The notes: generated from the letters alone by a model not told the origin. DNA of 64,000 nt from Flavobacteriales bacterium DA487 (GCA_049334165.1 JBEGHD010000001.1), one strand, 5' to 3'. Shown: positions 2,842 to 36,784, counted from the first letter of the stretch. A program made the numbers and translations.

Positions 2842-3837
2842 TTGAAACAGGAAATCGAACACTCCATGAAGTCGCTCTCGCAGTGTCAGCATCTAATCGT
2901 TGAAGCCATCGAAGAGTTTACTGCAGAAAATGGCAAAGGCGAACTCTACGAGCCCATCAATTACATCATGAACATTGGTGGAAAGCGGATGCGTCCTGCA
3001 CTCTTGCTCATGGCCTGCGATCTTTTTGGTGGAGATGTTCAAAAAGCGCTGAAGCCGGCTCTGGCCATAGAAGTGTTTCACAACTTCACCCTGATGCATG
3101 ACGACATCATGGACGAGGCTCCCATGCGAAGGGGCAAGAAAAGTGTTCACAAAAAGTGGGACACAAACGCGGCCATTCTCAGTGGAGACGCCATGATGGT
3201 GCAGGCTTACCAGCTGATCACCGAGACGCCCGACAAGCAATTGAAACCCGTGCTCGAAGTGTTCAGCGAAACGGCAATCGCAGTGTGCGAGGGCCAGCAG
3301 ATGGACATGGATTTTGAAAATCGGGATGACGTTGCCATCCACGAGTACCTCGAAATGATCAGGCTGAAAACCAGTGTTCTTGTAGCTGCAGCTCTAAAAA
3401 TCGGAGCCATCATTGCCGGTGCTTCCAAAAGAGATCAGGAACACGCTTATTTCTTCGGAGAAAAAATCGGGATGGCTTTTCAACTTCGTGACGATTATCT
3501 CGATGTGTTTGGCGAAGAAGACAAAGTCGGAAAACAAACCGGAGGCGACATCCTATCCGACAAAAAAACCTACCTCCTTTTGCGAGCCAGACAAAAAGCA
3601 TCGCCCGACCAGCTGAAAAAACTCAACGAGCTCAACGGCAACAATTCTGACCAAAAAGAGAAAGTCGAAAAGACCATCAAAATTTTTAGAGACCTGCGCG
3701 TAGATCACGAGCTGATTGAAAAATCGGAAATGTATTTCGCGGAAGCCATCACTCACCTCAACTCAATTAAACTCGAAGAGGAGCGCAAAATCGAACTTCA
3801 GCTCTTTGCCGAAAAACTCATGATCCGAGAAAGCTAA
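2842..3837 (+). CDS. polyprenyl diphosphate synthase family protein (IspA / GGPP-synthase-like)
   Basis: Two aspartate-rich motifs (LMHDDIMD and LRDDYLD) and KRMRPAL, typical of trans-isoprenyl diphosphate synthases. The start may instead be at the MKSLSQ methionine. Confidence 0.85.
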   Translation: MKQEIEHSMKSLSQCQHLIVEAIEEFTAENGKGELYEPINYIMNIGGKRMRPALLLMACDLFGGDVQKALKPALAIEVFHNFTLMHDDIMDEAPMRRGKKSVHKKWDTNAAILSGDAMMVQAYQLITETPDKQLKPVLEVFSETAIAVCEGQQMDMDFENRDDVAIHEYLEMIRLKTSVLVAAALKIGAIIAGASKRDQEHAYFFGEKIGMAFQLRDDYLDVFGEEDKVGKQTGGDILSDKKTYLLLRARQKASPDQLKKLNELNGNNSDQKEKVEKTIKIFRDLRVDHELIEKSEMYFAEAITHLNSIKLEEERKIELQLFAEKLMIRES

Positions 3838-4347: not shown

Positions 4348-7077
4348 ATGGACAACTACTCTTATCTGAGTAACGCAGACGTCACAGCGATAGACGACCT
4401 CTATCAAAAGTTTAAGGAAAATCCTGAGTCAGTCGATTTTGGCTGGCGCAAGTTTTTTGAAGGGTTTGAGTTTCACAGAACAGAATTTGAAAAAGACGGA
4501 GAGCAGGAACTTCCTGAAGATCTCCACAGGGAGTTTAAGGTAATCAACCTGATCAACGGATACCGCAATCGCGGCCACCTGTTCACCAAAACCAACCCGG
4601 TGCGCGAGAGAAGAAAATACTCTCCCACACTCGACATCGAAAACTTTGGCCTCGAAGAATCCGACCTGGACGAAACGTTTCAGGCTGGTCAGGAAATCGG
4701 AATTGGAAGAGCCACGCTCAAAGAAATTATTGAGCACCTAAAGCACACTTACTGCCAGTCGATTGGTGTGGAGTACATGTACATCCGCGATCCCGAAAGA
4801 CTCAAGTGGATTCAGCACAAGCTCGAGGAAAACAACCTGAAGAAATTTACCAAAGAGGAAAAGCTCGACATCTACAAAAAGTTGAGCCGCACCACGCTTT
4901 TCGAGCAATATCTGCAGCGAAAGTTTGTGGGACAAAAGAGATTTTCCATTGAAGGTGGCGAAGCGTTGATTCCAGCGTTGGACTCGCTTATCGAAAAAGC
5001 ATCTGCCAACGGAGTTGAGGAATTCGTAATGGGAATGGCCCACCGCGGTCGCCTCAACGCTCTGGCTCATATTTTTGGAAAGCCTTACGAAGAACTCTTT
5101 GCAGAATTCGAAGGACGAGAGTACAAAGACGATGTGTTCGATGGCGATGTGAAATACCACCTCGGCTACTCCAACACGGTGAAGTCCGACAAAGGAGCTG
5201 ACGTTCACCTTACCCTCTCCCCCAACCCTTCTCACCTCGAAGCGGTGGATCCGGTTGTGGAAGGTTTGACGAGAGCAAAAATCGACAACTACCTCAAAGA
5301 CGAGAACAAAATTGTTCCGATCCTCATCCACGGTGATGCGGCAATTGCAGCGCAGGGAGTGGTCTACGAAGTGGTGCAAATGGCACAGCTCGATGGCTAC
5401 CGAACCGGTGGAACTATCCACATTGTGGTGAACAACCAGATTGGCTTCACCACCAACTACCTCGATGGACGCTCGAGCACCTACTGCACAGATGTTGGTA
5501 AAACCACACTTTGCCCTGTGTTCCACGTAAATGGTGACGATGTGGAAGCCGTGATCCAAACAGTCAACATGGCGCTTGAGTACCGTCTGAAGTACAACCG
5601 CGATGTGTTTATCGATTTGCTCGGCTACAGAAAATACGGCCACAACGAAGGTGACGAGCCGAAGTTCACTCAGCCGCAGCTTTACAAAGCCATTTCGCAG
5701 CACCCCGACTTGCGAGAGATCTACAAAAATCAACTTATCGAAGAGGGAATTCTCACTGAAGATCAGGCCGATGAAATGAAGTCGGAGTTTGAGAAAATGC
5801 TTGACGACCGATTTGAGAAGAGCAAAAAGATCGAGAACAACTACGTGAAGCACTTCCTCGAGGAAACATGGAAAGATTTGAAAAAAGCTGATGACGATGC
5901 TTTTGACGAATCGCCAGATACAAGCTACGACAAGAAAAAACTCATAGAGCTCGGAAAGAAAATGAGCTCTCTGCCAGAAGGCAAAAAGTGGTTTAGAAAA
6001 GTTGAGAAGCTTTTCAAAGAGCGCACAAAAATGCTCGACAACAACAAGCTCGACTGGGGAATGGGCGAAATGCTCGCCTACGCCACGCTCCTGGAAGAAG
6101 GCTTCCCGGTGCGGATTTCCGGTCAGGATGTGGAGCGTGGGACCTTCTCTCACCGCCACGCTGTGGTGAAAACCGAAGACGAGGAAGAAATCATTCCGCT
6201 CAACCACATTGCCGACAAGCAAGCCGAAATGACGATCTACAACTCACTCCTAAGCGAGTACGGTGTTGTCGGGTTCGACTACGGTTACGCTTTTGCCACT
6301 CCAAACGGACTAACGATTTGGGAAGCGCAGTTTGGTGACTTCAACAACGGAGCGCAAATCATTATCGACCAGTTCCTGAGCTCTGCTGAAGATAAGTGGC
6401 GCACCATGAATGGATTGGTGATGCTGTTGCCTCACGGCTACGAGGGAATGGGCTCTGAGCACTCGAGTGGTCGCATGGAGCGCTACCTCACGCTTTGCGC
6501 TGAAAACAACATGCAGGTGGCCAACGCTACCACTCCGGCAAACTACTTCCACCTTTTGAGAAGGCAGCTACACCGCGAGTTCCGCAAGCCGCTGATCGTT
6601 TTCACTCCAAAGAAATTGCTCCGCTACGCCAAAGCAACTTCGAAAATCGAAGAGATGGCCGAGGGCAGATTCCAGGAAGTGCTGGACGATCCGAATGTGA
6701 AAAAAGGAGACGTGGACACGATTGCTTTCTGCTCTGGGAAAATCTACTACGACATCCTCGAAGAAAGAGAAAAGAAAGAGTCTGGAGAAAACATCGCAGT
6801 GGTGCGCCTCGAGCAGCTTTATCCGTTCCCGGAGAAGCAAATCGACAAGATTCTCGATAAGTACGACAAGGCGAAAAATTACATTTGGATTCAGGAAGAA
6901 CCTGAAAACATGGGCGCCTGGGGCTACATCCTCCGCACTTTCCGCAAGGTCAACCTGGATTTGATTTCCAGAAAAGCCTCCGGAAGTCCGGCAGCTGGAA
7001 GCACCATCGTACACGAGAAGCGCCACCGTGCACTGCTCGACAAGTTGTTCTCCTACGCCAAAGAAAAAGTATCATAA
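4348..7077 (+). CDS. sucA: 2-oxoglutarate dehydrogenase E1 component
   Basis: 909 aa with a SucA-like N-terminus (…DLYQKFKENPESVDFGWRKFFEGFEF…) and TPP-enzyme length and architecture. Confidence 0.95.
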   Translation: MDNYSYLSNADVTAIDDLYQKFKENPESVDFGWRKFFEGFEFHRTEFEKDGEQELPEDLHREFKVINLINGYRNRGHLFTKTNPVRERRKYSPTLDIENFGLEESDLDETFQAGQEIGIGRATLKEIIEHLKHTYCQSIGVEYMYIRDPERLKWIQHKLEENNLKKFTKEEKLDIYKKLSRTTLFEQYLQRKFVGQKRFSIEGGEALIPALDSLIEKASANGVEEFVMGMAHRGRLNALAHIFGKPYEELFAEFEGREYKDDVFDGDVKYHLGYSNTVKSDKGADVHLTLSPNPSHLEAVDPVVEGLTRAKIDNYLKDENKIVPILIHGDAAIAAQGVVYEVVQMAQLDGYRTGGTIHIVVNNQIGFTTNYLDGRSSTYCTDVGKTTLCPVFHVNGDDVEAVIQTVNMALEYRLKYNRDVFIDLLGYRKYGHNEGDEPKFTQPQLYKAISQHPDLREIYKNQLIEEGILTEDQADEMKSEFEKMLDDRFEKSKKIENNYVKHFLEETWKDLKKADDDAFDESPDTSYDKKKLIELGKKMSSLPEGKKWFRKVEKLFKERTKMLDNNKLDWGMGEMLAYATLLEEGFPVRISGQDVERGTFSHRHAVVKTEDEEEIIPLNHIADKQAEMTIYNSLLSEYGVVGFDYGYAFATPNGLTIWEAQFGDFNNGAQIIIDQFLSSAEDKWRTMNGLVMLLPHGYEGMGSEHSSGRMERYLTLCAENNMQVANATTPANYFHLLRRQLHREFRKPLIVFTPKKLLRYAKATSKIEEMAEGRFQEVLDDPNVKKGDVDTIAFCSGKIYYDILEEREKKESGENIAVVRLEQLYPFPEKQIDKILDKYDKAKNYIWIQEEPENMGAWGYILRTFRKVNLDLISRKASGSPAAGSTIVHEKRHRALLDKLFSYAKEKVS

Positions 7078-18337: not shown

Positions 18338-19239
18338 TCGCGGATCTCACCGGACTTGATCAACTCTTCCAATCGGTTTTTGTATTGATTCGACTTCTGC
18401 TCCTCACTCAAACTTCTGTAGATCGCCATCAATCCTTTTAGCGTTTCCTTTCGGTTGGGGCGCTGGCTATGGGCCTCCAGCATATAGGGAAGTGACTGCT
18501 TAAAGAGTTTTACGCTCTCGTCCTGAATCATGATCAACTCATAGATCTCGGTGTTGTAGTTCACCTGGCGAATTTTATAAGCTCCCTGATTGTAGTAGTT
18601 GATAGCGATGTTGTAGTTAGCCTGGTAGTCCGTGGGATCCATCTCAAGCACTTTCTTGTAGTACTCGATGGCCTTGTCGATATAAATCTGATTTTGCTCG
18701 CGATTTCTTTCGTAGAGCTTTCGATAGCCTGATCCGAGTGCTTTGTAAAGTTCGATTTTCTCTGCAGTGTAATCCTTGTCCGGATCAAAAAGCGGATAGA
18801 GGGAGCGGTACTTTTTGAAGAAATATTCCGGCTCGTTTTGATTTTGGTAAGTGAGATTGTAGGTGGCATCAACAGCATCGTTGAAGTAAGACACTGCCAG
18901 GAACTTGGCCGCCTTCCCGATGAGCTCATCGTACTTTCCTTCTTTGTCGAGTTCCACCGCCCGCTTGATTGAAGCCACGGCAATCTCCCTGTTTTCGGAA
19001 TACTTGTCGCGATTGTCGCGCTGCTTGTAGATCTCTTTGAAAATATATCCTTTCACAAACCAGGCGTATGGATCCTTTGCCACAGCTGGGTTTCGCAGAG
19101 CATCCTCAATGGTTTCTCTCGCTTCCGAAAGCTCACCTGCTTCGCACTGGCGAGCGGCTTGTTTCACAAGATCAGACTGAGCCTGAGCGCCAAATGCGAT
19201 CAGTAGCAAAAATGCGATATGTAGGATTGCACTTTTCAT
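18334..19239 (-). CDS. secreted tetratricopeptide-repeat (TPR) protein
   Basis: Signal peptide MKSAILHIAFLLLIAFGAQAQ, with multiple TPR-like W/Y…A…Y…G repeats. Its stop overlaps the phosphatase start (ATGA). Confidence 0.7.
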   Translation of the reverse strand: MKSAILHIAFLLLIAFGAQAQSDLVKQAARQCEAGELSEARETIEDALRNPAVAKDPYAWFVKGYIFKEIYKQRDNRDKYSENREIAVASIKRAVELDKEGKYDELIGKAAKFLAVSYFNDAVDATYNLTYQNQNEPEYFFKKYRSLYPLFDPDKDYTAEKIELYKALGSGYRKLYERNREQNQIYIDKAIEYYKKVLEMDPTDYQANYNIAINYYNQGAYKIRQVNYNTEIYELIMIQDESVKLFKQSLPYMLEAHSQRPNRKETLKGLMAIYRSLSEEQKSNQYKNRLEELIKSGEIRD

Positions 19240-19775
19240 TTTATCGCCCAGTTTTTAATCTTATCTCCGAGAATTATTTTCCGCTGGTCCGCCTCCTTTT
19301 CATTTATTTCAAATCGAATGTTGCCTTCCTGCACCACAAAGTTGATCATGACACCTTCATCGAGAGCTCCCGAAAAATCGGATATGATCATTGTGCTTTT
19401 CTTCGATAACTTCTTGGTGAGTTCAGAAAGTTCTTTTCGTTTTTCCTTGGAAACGAAGAGTACATGCGGCCTTTTTATCTCACTCACAGACTCGAACTGT
19501 GTAACCTCGAGCATCTGACTTCCGATCGACTTGGTGGCGTACTTGTCCAGCAATTCTTCGAAGACATTTTCGTCACCGTAAACTCCAACGTGGAATTTAC
19601 CCGATTTATATTCGTCAGGCCAATCGGAGTATTTCGAGAAGTTAAAGAGATAGTTTGCCTTGATCATGGCCACAGTGTTGGCTTCGTCAATCTGCGCGTC
19701 ATCTCCCTCAGAGTTTGAAACCCCCGAGGAAACTAGCACCAGTGCCAAAAATGTTATACAAAGCCCTCTGATCAA
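19236..19775 (-). CDS. YfiR-like (DUF4154-type) periplasmic protein
   Basis: Signal peptide, about 180 aa, and a sequence pattern (…VGVYGDENVF…FVSKEK…MIISDFSG…GNIRFEINEKEA…) typical of the YfiR/DUF4154 family. Non-ATG (TTG) start; overlaps the TPR gene start by 4 nt. Confidence 0.65.
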   Translation of the reverse strand: MIRGLCITFLALVLVSSGVSNSEGDDAQIDEANTVAMIKANYLFNFSKYSDWPDEYKSGKFHVGVYGDENVFEELLDKYATKSIGSQMLEVTQFESVSEIKRPHVLFVSKEKRKELSELTKKLSKKSTMIISDFSGALDEGVMINFVVQEGNIRFEINEKEADQRKIILGDKIKNWAIK

Positions 19776-19784
19776 TATCTTACA

Positions 19785-20200
19785 AGTTAAGATGCGTTAC
19801 TCTCTGTGCAGTTAACAAAAATAACTCTTGAGCTCCGCAGGCTGAGAAAAGGAGAATTTGTTTATCAACCTGTTGGTGTGTAAAATAGAAAGGTTGCGGG
19901 TTTGTGAGTAGTTGATGACCGTGGGAAGTAGGTAATTGGGGGATTGAGGTGACTTGGGGATTGAGGAGGCTCAAGCTAATACATTATTAAACTTTTACCG
20001 GCTAGTACCTGAGGGTGTCGAGATAAAGTAGAGACAAGGTGATGGGGCCTGTGCGGTTTTGATCATGATTTTTGGAATTTGGTGCTTCTGGGAAAAGTCC
20101 CAGTGGGACGACATTTTGGTAGATATTGGCATTTTCCAAATTTACAAAGCTCCAGAGGAGCGGCATTATGGTAAGTATTCCCAAGGGAAAAAGTAGTATT
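19785..20200 (-). repeat. copy B of a dispersed intergenic element (about 400 bp) that carries a conserved small ORF and the palindrome GTCCCA-C-TGGGAC; related to copy A at 28250-28590
   Basis: About 80% nucleotide identity over the roughly 85-bp core (ATGCCGCTCCTCTGGAGC…TACCAAAATGTCGTCCCACTGGGACTT…), plus a shared distal block TAACTGCAC…GCAT…AACTT. Confidence 0.55.
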
Positions 20201-20204
20201 GAAT

Positions 20205-20244
20205 GAAAAAAAGCACAACCAGCGTCCGCCAGTTGTGCTTTTCT
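20205..20244 (-). terminator. rho-independent terminator of the ferritin gene
   Basis: Minus strand reads AAAAGCACAAC-loop-GTTGTGCTTTTTTTC. Confidence 0.6.
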
Positions 20245-20289
20245 AAAATTTATTGAAGGACTAAAATTCCTCCTCTTTAAATATTGAGT

Positions 20290-28224: not shown

Positions 28225-28249
28225 TTTTTATTTGTTTTCATTTTTAAGT

Positions 28250-28590
28250 TAGACCATTATGTCGCTCCTCCGGAGCTTGTTCGTTGTTGGCTCTGTCATT
28301 GGCTACCAAAATGTCGTCCCTCTGGGACTTTCTCCAAAAGCAACTAAGTGCTCCGAAATGCTGGAGTTTCTCACAGAGACCACCGAAAAAAAGCACCGAG
28401 CTCACCTAGCGTTTTTCACAATTGAATACCCTCCTGATCAACCTACCAAGATTTCTCTGTCTTCTCCGTGAAGTCTCTGCGAGCTCTGCGAGAACATCCG
28501 TAGCTGCAAGCAACTCCCACCTTCGTTCTTCTACGCTGGGCAAGCATAAGTCAAAACAGATCTGCCCTAACTGCACGCATTCCAACTTTC
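28250..28590 (+). repeat. copy A of the dispersed intergenic element (see copy B at 19785-20200); it encodes the paralogous small ORF MSLLRSLFVVGSVIGYQNVVPLGLSPKA… and the palindrome GTCCC-TCT-GGGAC
   Basis: Aligned by eye against the reverse complement of 20085-20170; the distal TAACTGCAC…GCAT…AACTT block is also shared. Confidence 0.55.
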
Positions 28591-28642
28591 GTTTCACTAC
28601 GGTCGGCAAGCGTAATTCATAATTGACACTTTCATAACTCAA

Positions 28643-34785: not shown

Positions 34786-36024
34786 GTGGAAGAGCTAAAA
34801 GTAATTGCATTAACCCATAAAAACCTCAGCCTCGAAGACATTGGCAAGTTTCACCTTGCCGATGACGAACGCGAATCGAGACTGCAGGAAATCAAAGAAA
34901 AATTCGGATTTGACGAATTGATGTTTCTCAGCACGTGCAATCGTGTGGAGATCGTCCTTTCGGTAAACCGTTTTTACTGCATGGGCCAGGCAAGAGAATT
35001 GCTTCAGGAACTCTCCAGCGATGTGCATCCAGATTTTCTTCAGCGCATCGTGCACAAAGTTGAGCTCTTCTCGGGTCGTGCTGCGCTCGAGCACCTCATC
35101 AAAGTAGCTTCATCGCTCGACTCGATGGTGATTGGCGAACGCGAAATCATCACGCAGGTGCGCAAAGCATTTGAAGAAAGCCGTCAGTTCGGAATTTCAG
35201 GCGACCTCTGCAGATTGGTGATCAAGCAAACCATCGCTTCGGCAAAAAGAATTTACACCGACACGCACATCGCTCGCAAACCGGTTTCTGTGGTTTCGCT
35301 GGCCTGGCAACGAATTCTTTCCAAAAAACTCCCGAAAGACTCCAGAGTGCTGTTGATCGGTGCCGGACAGATCATCCGCAACATGAGCCGCTTTTTGCAA
35401 AAAGGGAAGTTCGAAAACGTGACTGTTGCCAACCGCACCCTCCACAGGGCTGAATCAATTGCCGACCTTTTCGAAAACGGCAAAGCCATTTCTCTCGAAG
35501 ATCTTTCGACCTACGAAGGCGGCTTCGATTTGATGATCACCTGCACCGGTTCTGACGAAGCAGTGATCACAGAAAAAATCTACGATCAGCTCACCAAAGG
35601 TGAAGACACACACAAAATCATTTTCGACCTGGCTCTTCCGGCCGATGTGGATCCTACTCTGACCAACATCCACGACATCGACTACACCGGCATGCCGCAG
35701 CTCAAAACTGTAGCCGACAAAAACATCGCTGAGCGATCCAAAGAAGTTGAGCGCTGCGAAAGACTGGTTCAGGAAGGCATGGCCGAGTTCGACAAAATGC
35801 ACGAGCAGCGTCAGATTGAGATCGCTATGCGCGATATCCCCAGAGCGATCAAAGAAATTCGCGAGACAGCCATCGGTGAAGTCTTCGCCAAAGACCTCGA
35901 AGGCCTCGACTCTGAAAGCCGTGAAGTCCTCGAAAAAATCATGGGCTACATGGAAAAGAAATACATCAGCGTTCCCATGAAAATGGCCAAGCAGGTGATT
36001 TTGGAGAGTAAGGGGCGGAGTTGA
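34786..36024 (+). CDS. hemA: glutamyl-tRNA reductase
   Basis: STCNRVE active-site region; NADPH-binding GAGQ motif; GTG start. Confidence 0.9.
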   Translation: MEELKVIALTHKNLSLEDIGKFHLADDERESRLQEIKEKFGFDELMFLSTCNRVEIVLSVNRFYCMGQARELLQELSSDVHPDFLQRIVHKVELFSGRAALEHLIKVASSLDSMVIGEREIITQVRKAFEESRQFGISGDLCRLVIKQTIASAKRIYTDTHIARKPVSVVSLAWQRILSKKLPKDSRVLLIGAGQIIRNMSRFLQKGKFENVTVANRTLHRAESIADLFENGKAISLEDLSTYEGGFDLMITCTGSDEAVITEKIYDQLTKGEDTHKIIFDLALPADVDPTLTNIHDIDYTGMPQLKTVADKNIAERSKEVERCERLVQEGMAEFDKMHEQRQIEIAMRDIPRAIKEIRETAIGEVFAKDLEGLDSESREVLEKIMGYMEKKYISVPMKMAKQVILESKGRS

Positions 36025-36025
36025 T
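35980..36025 (+). repeat. 46-bp direct repeat, copy 1 (the native 3' end of hemA)
   Basis: AAAATGGCCAAGCAGGTGATTTTGGAGAGTAAGGGGCGGAGTTGAT is identical to 36739-36784. Confidence 0.85.
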
Positions 36026-36738: not shown

Positions 36739-36784
36739 AAAATGGCCAAGCAGGTGATTTTGGAGAGTAAGGGGCGGAGTTGAT
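36739..36784 (+). repeat. 46-bp direct repeat, copy 2 (duplicated hemA 3' end downstream of the TA cassette)
   Basis: Identical to 35980-36025. Confidence 0.85.

Follow-up and report, generated by a model that had tools for sequence, protein, structure and literature searches.

Head-to-tail hairpin doublets at two intergenic sites of a Flavobacteriales genome: probable members of a REP-type element family linked to a Y1 transposase gene

A stretch of 64,000 nucleotides of Flavobacteriales bacterium DA487 (GCA_049334165.1 JBEGHD010000001.1), called the window in the following, contains two intergenic sites which share a short conserved DNA element. Copy A is located between the ferritin gene and the YfiR operon, in sense orientation, and copy B between the type III polyketide synthase (PKS) and KR genes of a polyketide cluster, in antisense orientation. 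The type III PKS of the window is 100% identical, and its YfiR 99% identical, to proteins of Halocola ammonii (Flavobacteriales). An earlier inspection of the sequence alone (the sequence-only reading) had described the two copies as dispersed elements of 340–415 nt with a conserved core, a distal block, a palindrome and a small open reading frame (ORF), and had considered a miniature mobile element, a gene family for a small non-coding RNA or peptide, or a shared regulator-binding module. The evidence presented here suggests that in each copy two units of a non-autonomous element of the repetitive extragenic palindromic (REP) type are joined head-to-tail; the element would be a variant of the REP/RAYT (REP-associated tyrosine transposase) kind.

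Smith-Waterman local alignment of the two regions yielded a common core of 90 nt with about 80% identity (score 74), close to the 85 bp and about 80% claimed before; reading and alignment of both regions showed that the similarity is confined to this one block. The longest inverted repeat of the window is 20078–20131/28294–28347 (54 nt, 81%), and the opposite orientations of the two copies were confirmed. Each core consists of two units, arranged head-to-tail, with their starts 52 nt apart. A unit begins with a 13-nt tail (CTACCAAAATGTC), continues with a hairpin that has a stem of 5 bp and a loop of 3 nt, and ends in TT. In both cores the tail ACCATWATGYC precedes the hairpin GCTCC-N3-GGAGC in unit 1, while unit 2 combines the canonical tail with the hairpin GTCCC-N3-GGGAC; thus, the perfect palindrome pointed out in the sequence-only reading is present, and a second one with it. 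The degenerate unit pattern ATGYCGYYCCNNNGGRRCTT matched the window four times, at these units only (Table 1), against an expectation of 0.15 from dinucleotide shuffles (n = 100), and four matches were reached in 0/100 shuffles. Each of the two doublets is more similar to the other one than to any copy found in another genome, the best foreign match being 74% over 91 nt (locus L001). As mutual closest relatives with a common heterodimer layout they point to a probable duplication within the Halocola lineage, and at about 80% identity they would be old paralogous copies.

In relatives, neither site contains the element. In a relative whose YfiR is 71% identical (L071), the ferritin gene, its terminator and the YfiR promoter follow each other within 202 nt, the terminator abutting CTATTTTACAC; the corresponding spacer of the window measures 514 nt and contains about 300 nt of extra DNA (19904–20203). 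A much closer, metagenomic relative (L082) has 92% nucleotide identity over 19101–19903, and its sequence upstream of 19903 (L082 1–150) is wholly unrelated, which indicates a putative strain-level rearrangement at 19903/19904, the exact edge of the extra segment. At the site of copy B, where the gap in the window is 418 nt, Owenweeksia hongkongensis has a PKS-KR gap of 34 nt (L075/L076 5069–5102). No units were found in about 50 kb fetched from relatives. Relatives differ from each other at the PKS-KR junction of this aryl-polyene/flexirubin-like cluster: two metagenomic ones contain a gene for a YitT/DUF2179 membrane protein there (L073 5069–6037, L074 5120–6079). A pseudogene of this kind was considered as the origin of the 418-nt gap and was dropped, since tblastn detected no remnant of it in the gap.

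The sequence-only reading had proposed a search for further copies, and these turned out to be numerous. A collection of 185,579 species-representative genomes, to which the source genome does not belong, was scanned with the pattern CCAAAATGTCGNNCCNNNGGNNCTT, in which two stem positions and the loop were left free. This yielded 70 loci, of which about 60 had strong units and belonged nearly all to Bacteroidota or close neighbours (Cytophagales, Chitinophagales, Saprospiraceae, Flavobacteriales, Sphingobacteriales and others); about 10 appeared to be chance matches (Pseudomonas, Streptomyces, Planctomycetota, others), which scored poorly or not at all later. A covariance model, R1, was built from an alignment (A2) of 140 units of other genomes, with all window copies left out. 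Applied to the window, R1 recovered exactly four units with 32–43 bits (E 2.5e-6 to 4e-9), the next best hit having E > 1, and with its filters off no further diverged units were detected in the window. In 452 kb of fetched loci (about 60 Bacteroidota loci) it found 277 units; the loci are stretches of up to 8 kb around motif matches, so that such counts are per locus and not genome-wide. Several assemblies contributed 3–7 separate contigs each, even with the strict pattern, and therefore the family is dispersed within these genomes. The source genome is represented by the 64-kb window only, with two sites and four units.

Covariation analysis of the palindrome, also suggested by the sequence-only reading as a means to distinguish a hairpin from a protein site, spoke for a hairpin. 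The free stem positions were complementary in 167 of 193 units of the unfiltered regular-expression set, compared to about 1/16 by chance; this count is the valid one, and that from A2 was not used, as A2 had been pre-filtered for complementary stems and would be circular. At least eight perfectly paired stem types were seen, namely GCCCC (116), GTCCC (16), GCTCC (15) and GTTCC (12), with GTGCC, GGCCC, GTACC and GAACC among the rarer ones. Pairing has thus been kept through repeated compensatory change, as expected for a nucleic-acid hairpin and not for a protein half-site. Information content is limited to about 29 nt (-8 to +20 around the core), whereas spacer sequences vary from genome to genome. 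The hairpin foot is formed by TGTC; CTAC (GTAG on the other strand) is situated 9 nt away, where the 13-nt tail has its distal end. Read in forward orientation, most units have TT(T)(T) after the stem.

The units are extragenic: only 10% lie within stop-free stretches of at least 150 codons, although such stretches make up 79% of the DNA, and both window copies are intergenic likewise. All four orientation contexts with respect to flanking genes are occupied (30, 28, 20 and 18 cases), with no strong orientation bias. Of 86 pairs of neighbouring units, 62 (72%) are direct, with both units on one strand, and 24 have their units on opposite strands; same-strand spacing peaks at 47–56 nt, and its mode of 52 nt equals the spacing in the window. 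Several units are present at many of the loci, with up to six in a row at 53–56-nt steps (L040).

Several observations on arrays may be added. The chromosome of Lacihabitans lacunae CECT 7956, a cultivable organism, has, within L045 4777–6288, a composite of about 320 nt with 5–6 units in both orientations, which recurs there at least four times in tandem. At L006 (~700–760), L009 (~4515–4590) and L022 (~2940–3015) a forward unit is directly followed by an inverted one; the complementary 13-nt tails of such pairs could fold into a long REPIN-like hairpin. The possibility of CRISPR arrays was discarded, since the "spacers" are near-identical in L040 and no cas-like neighbour recurs; the arrays represent simple tandem repetition at intervals of about 52 nt.

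The arrays adjoin a gene for a Y1 (HUH) transposase of 154 amino acids in 10 of 75 loci. In L011 this ORF has four reverse-complement units on its upstream side and four forward units on its downstream side; the encoded protein matches Pfam Y1_Tnp (E 3e-26) and scores 68 bits with NCBIfam transpos_IS200, for which the cutoff is 55. The closest relative of known structure is the TnpA of ISDra2 (2xm3, E 3e-6), with IS608 TnpA also among the nearest. Homologues with 58–95% identity were located by tblastn beside arrays in L047, L035, L058, L016, L029 and L070, and others in L077, L078 and L080; the latter stem from an independent scan of JGI metagenomes with the Halocola-type doublet pattern, which gave five loci, three of them with the gene and none from Halocola. 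All ten proteins contain DH[VI]H and YI.xQExHH (Y---Q--HH) and share the C-terminus F.EEY...L..F...Y...Y.FEFY. Downstream units have the orientation of the gene, and the first one usually begins about 0–50 nt from the stop codon. In L011, L035, L047, L058 and L070 the units upstream are inverted; elsewhere the contig ends or there is no upstream unit. When the 409 ORFs situated up to 1.5 kb from a unit were compared all against all, the transposase was the only recurrent family (9 loci, any other at most 3). Upstream of the gene in L011 (3598–3640) there is also a unit with a 16-nt loop insertion, GCCCCATCGG[TCGGGTCGCCGAAACG]GGC.

It could be argued that the units are ends or remnants of an autonomous insertion sequence (IS) of the IS200 type, and that the doublets of the window are solo ends or derivatives similar to palindrome-associated transposable elements (PATEs) or miniature inverted-repeat transposable elements (MITEs), instead of REPs which depend on one domesticated gene. 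The protein does reach the equivalog cutoff of NCBIfam for IS200/IS605, with ISDra2 and IS608 TnpA as its nearest solved relatives, and L078 and L080, from one assembly, have an identical junction between gene and array. However, the ends of IS200/IS605 elements are not inverted repeats; they, like PATEs, have a single subterminal hairpin per end, on the same strand, and move as a unit, whereas the gene described here is bordered by inverted arrays of several units, and units also occur dispersed by themselves. The 277 units in 452 kb also far exceed the seven transposase genes there. Between L011 and L047, whose proteins are 95% identical, unit numbers differ on both sides with the gene in place; the arrays are therefore dynamic. 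Proteins of the Y---Q--HH type, known as TnpA_Y1 subclass 1.2, are described in PMC6006769 as low-copy and without properties of an IS. An autonomous element thus appears to be an unlikely explanation.

The family is better compared with the "REPtrons" of Escherichia coli, Pseudomonas and Stenotrophomonas, which consist of REPs or REPINs and a RAYT (TnpA_REP) (PMC2817692; PMC3116915; PMC6006769; Ton-Hoang 2012). Shared features are short extragenic hairpins with an unpaired conserved tail, many copies, dispersed within several of the other genomes, compensatory stems, clusters of repeats that flank an HUH/Y1 gene in inverted fashion, and a gene that, in the fetched loci, is far rarer than the repeats. 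A unit of about 29 nt is within the size range of REPs (20–40 nt), and its pairing is maintained. Both window doublets are direct and not inverted as in REPINs, although inverted pairs exist elsewhere, e.g., in L006, L009 and L022. The departures from classical REPs are four: the GT[AG]G at the hairpin foot is absent, and CTAC/GTAG is found instead at the far end of the tail; stem and loop measure only 5 bp and 3 nt; most adjacent pairs are head-to-tail, while classical REPs are head-to-head or tail-to-tail, with head-to-tail dimers being "negligible" (PMC3733652); and the partner protein is IS200-like with Y---Q--HH, not a class 2 protein with Y---NP. The family is for these reasons set outside RAYT/REPIN, as a variant of the REP kind.

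A super-family of REPs tagged with CGTC or TGTC has been reported in Bacteroidetes and Chlorobi (PMC3733652), and the present units likewise have an unpaired YGTC (here TGTC) directly 5' of the stem. The CGTC families have stems of 8–9 bp starting with A/T pairs, loops of 4–5 nt and a CCA tail, and are mostly head-to-head, reportedly with no linked transposase (PMC3733652), in contrast to the 5-bp G+C stems, 3-nt loops, head-to-tail arrays and linked Y1 gene found here.

With respect to the protein, PMC6006769 defines TnpA_Y1 subclass 1.2 by Y---Q--HH, an HuH motif with V or I, a specific C-terminal domain and occurrence in Bacteroidetes and Cyanobacteria. The proteins beside the arrays have Y---Q--HH, DH[VI]H, about 154 residues and a conserved C-terminal extension, and occur in Bacteroidota, which places them in this subclass; in contrast to the subclass as described, their genes lie amid arrays formed by a defined hairpin unit. 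In the first and the seventh of the eight parts of the table of manually identified REPs of PMC6006769, unclassified rows lead straight to 2.1, the end is formed by 2.7, 2.8 and 3, and subclass 1.x rows are absent. The unit motif strings occur nowhere in that table, and a literature search for the unit sequence retrieved unrelated primers only. Group 3 of the RAYT-like IS200 proteins, which is single-copy, does not occur on plasmids and has abundant 16-mers at its flanks (PMC5581495), may be the same group as the array proteins.

A possible mechanism can be proposed by analogy. The IS200/IS605 transposases TnpA of IS608 and ISDra2, and TnpA_REP of E. coli, act on folded single-stranded hairpins (Ton-Hoang 2012; Messing 2012, PMC3479197); those of IS608 and ISDra2 recognise small hairpins together with adjacent guide and cleavage nucleotides on single-stranded DNA, and the present transposase belongs to the same superfamily and is similar in sequence. 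A unit would thus fold into a hairpin on single-stranded DNA, for example on the lagging-strand template, and the Y1 transposase, acting in trans, would recognise hairpin and tail. The strand could then be cleaved and rejoined, whereby units or doublets would be excised, inserted and amplified side by side; insertion beside an existing unit would build head-to-tail arrays, and the outcome would be arrays with a period of about 52 nt as well as dispersed copies. Effects on transcription, perhaps as a weak hairpin-plus-T-run terminator or as a stabiliser of mRNA 3' ends, would be a by-product. We infer from this analogy that the units are recognised and mobilised by the Y1 transposase, and Halocola ammonii should accordingly possess one of subclass 1.2.

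We would assign a probability of roughly 70% to the view that the window doublets are REP-type elements of this variant kind. Several points weigh against it. The window has only two doublets in 64 kb, diverged by about 20%, and they may be relics. Neither tblastn nor a hidden Markov model (HMM) of the ten proteins revealed a Y1 transposase gene in the window. The loci with the transposase were ascertained through the DNA motif, and not conversely from subclass 1.2 genes. The missing GT[AG]G has been mentioned; neither do the proteins look like class 2 RAYTs, as Y---NP is lacking, transpos_IS200 is the only NCBIfam match, and E. coli TnpA_REP is absent from the PDB matches with E < 0.1. Folding energies of the 100-nt cores were not clearly better than those of shuffles (z -0.6 to -1.8), the hairpins being thermodynamically weak. 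Finally, the doublets account for only part of the extra DNA at the two sites (300 and 418 nt), which exceeds them in length by a factor of 3–4. In favour, there are the membership in a large dispersed family of extragenic hairpins, the tie to a Y1/HUH transposase gene and the lack of units at the same sites of relatives. Of the three explanations offered by the sequence-only reading, the miniature mobile element has held up, the regulator-binding module is disfavoured and the peptide gene is rejected.

A more specific proposal can be made, tentatively and at slightly less than even odds: the Y1 transposases of subclass 1.2 in Bacteroidota could be the dedicated enzymes of a REP system of their own, with 29-nt units, a distal CTAC tail and head-to-tail arrays of about 52 nt period, which would have arisen inside the IS200 clade separately from class 2 RAYTs, and of which the window doublets would be the footprints in Halocola.

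Alternatively, the hairpins might be kept for a role in RNA, as intrinsic terminators, insulators or stabilisers of 3' ends, with mobility being irrelevant or long past. The T residues after the stem, the terminator-like appearance of one window unit in a scan, and the mildly C-rich DNA downstream and mildly G-rich DNA upstream of arrays, which hint at a weak preference for 3' ends of genes, would be consistent with this, and effects in the 3' untranslated region are documented for E. coli REPs (bioRxiv 10.64898/2026.03.23.713779). Nevertheless, every orientation with respect to neighbouring genes is occupied, copy B lies antisense inside a biosynthetic cluster, and copy A follows a much stronger terminator. 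A conserved single-stranded tail of 13 nt and arrays of up to six or more units are foreign to terminators, and the stems have 5 bp only. Intrinsic terminators were rejected accordingly, considering the 5-bp stem with 2–4 T's, the absence of a strong orientation bias and the antisense position of copy B. A small non-coding RNA is disfavoured, too, by the lack of a strong orientation bias and of an Rfam match: no Rfam family reached its gathering score in the whole window, and around either copy searches with E limits of 10 or 1 gave no meaningful match. Altogether, a role in RNA as the reason for the hairpins seems quite improbable.

Still weaker is the case for operators of a dimeric regulator common to the YfiR operon and the polyketide cluster. 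Each site has two perfect 5-N3-5 palindromes, 52 nt or about five helical turns apart, and both copies are upstream of minus-strand genes; however, GCTCC and GTCCC occur within each doublet, and elsewhere GCCCC and GTTCC in one array, so that pairing is conserved and sequence is not. The unit is present in hundreds of unrelated contexts and in long arrays, and relatives retain the YfiR promoter without any units, which makes this explanation very improbable. A small protein family encoded by the two ORFs of 60–70 amino acids can practically be dismissed, for although both span both units in the same frames and share YQNVVPLGL, no homologue was found among 5.8 billion proteins, the peptides are unrelated outside the residues encoded by the DNA units, and no reading frame is preferred.

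The conserved peptide is a mere translation of the conserved DNA unit. As the spacing of 52 nt cannot be divided by 3, the reading frame changes from one unit of a doublet to the other; in the family, unit spacings modulo 3 are evenly spread (20, 15 and 12), and the frame of YQNV stays open no longer than the remaining frames (median 44 codons versus 45.5 and 45.5). The distal block (TAACTGCAC...GCAT...AACTT) could not be upheld either. When the core was removed and the remainders of about 300 nt were compared by local alignment, the best result was the bare 9-mer TAACTGCAC, which 66% of shuffles equalled in score. The block of copy A is kept in two relatives without the element (L071, L082) and is positioned just downstream of a TATTTTTG box, which we take to fit the Bacteroidetes -7 consensus TAnnTTTG; it is the promoter or leader of YfiR and not part of the element, because it is conserved where the repeat is missing. 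Without distal block and ORF, the element is reduced from the 340–415 nt given before to about 90–100 nt.

Table 1. Positions of the doublets, their units and other features of the window
Feature	Position	Strand	Remarks
Copy A doublet core	20083–20172	-	unit 1, 32-nt spacer, unit 2, about 14 nt of 3' flank (TTTTCCCAGAAGCA)
Copy A unit 1	20141–20182	-	R1 38.2 bits, E 6e-8; ATGYCGYYCCNNNGGRRCTT match 20147–20166; tail CTTACCATAATGCC 20175–20162; GCTCC-TCT-GGAGC 20161–20149, then TTT
Copy A unit 2	20089–20130	-	R1 38.5 bits, E 5e-8; ATGYCGYYCCNNNGGRRCTT match 20095–20114; tail CTACCAAAATGTC 20122–20110; GTCCC-ACT-GGGAC 20109–20097, then TTTT
Copy B doublet core	28253–28342	+	heterodimer layout as in copy A
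Copy B unit 1	28243–28284	+	R1 32.1 bits, E 2.5e-6; ATGYCGYYCCNNNGGRRCTT match 28259–28278; terminator scan match; tail AGACCATTATGTC 28251–28263; GCTCC-TCC-GGAGC 28264–28276, then TT
Copy B unit 2	28295–28336	+	R1 42.9 bits, E 4e-9 (best of the window); ATGYCGYYCCNNNGGRRCTT match 28311–28330; tail CTACCAAAATGTC 28303–28315; GTCCC-TCT-GGGAC 28316–28328, then TTT
Copy A context	19904–20203	-	lineage-specific non-coding segment; doublet in its 5' part, then G-poor tail of about 185 nt
Copy B context	28225–28642	+	418-nt non-coding gap between type III PKS and KR; doublet KR-proximal, then about 300 nt G-poor
G-poor tail of copy A	19904–20088	-	GC skew -0.43
G-poor tail of copy B	28343–28642	+	GC skew -0.26
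17-nt tandem repeat	19930–19966		plus-strand sequence AGGTAACTGGGGGATTG; 2.2 copies
Small ORF at copy A	20002–20184	-	
Small ORF at copy B	28259–28471	+	
Strong terminator before copy A	20205–20245		
46-nt direct repeat, first copy	35980–36025		3' end of the glutamyl-tRNA reductase gene (final 15 codons with the stop)
46-nt direct repeat, second copy	36739–36784		
Glutamyl-tRNA reductase gene	34786–36024		

The G-poor tails following the doublets, 185–300 nt long and on the doublet's own strand, have no similarity to each other, are absent from the relatives and contain no further units. Throughout the family, the DNA that follows arrays on the 3' side tends mildly to be C-rich: the skew is below -0.2 at 25 loci and above +0.2 at 2. 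The tandem motif GGGGATTGAGG of the sequence-only reading was found again, as the 17-nt tandem repeat inside the G-poor tail of copy A. A separate observation in the window is the perfect 46-nt direct repeat at the end of the glutamyl-tRNA reductase gene (hemA). Between its two copies there are an ORF of 86 amino acids without a Pfam match and an overlapping one of 136 amino acids with a PIN_3 domain; the arrangement has the appearance of a toxin-antitoxin-like cassette, about 760 bp in length, whose insertion at the end of hemA would have duplicated the target or attachment site.

REP elements and domesticated transposases are well studied in Proteobacteria and hardly at all in Bacteroidota, and two surveys found the Y1 proteins of subclass 1.2 puzzling, being single-copy and IS200-like and yet without features of an IS. 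If the proposal made here is true, this group, hitherto an orphan without known DNA partner, would gain a repeat substrate of its own, and a second, independent case would become available for the study of transposase domestication. The DNA unit is defined and easily searchable, and as such it is a candidate substrate for subclass 1.2 proteins. For the window, REP-type doublets would mean that the similarity upstream of the YfiR operon and within the polyketide cluster is uninformative on co-regulation. In Bacteroidota genomes in general, the unit would explain a class of spurious small ORFs and of long intergenic gaps.

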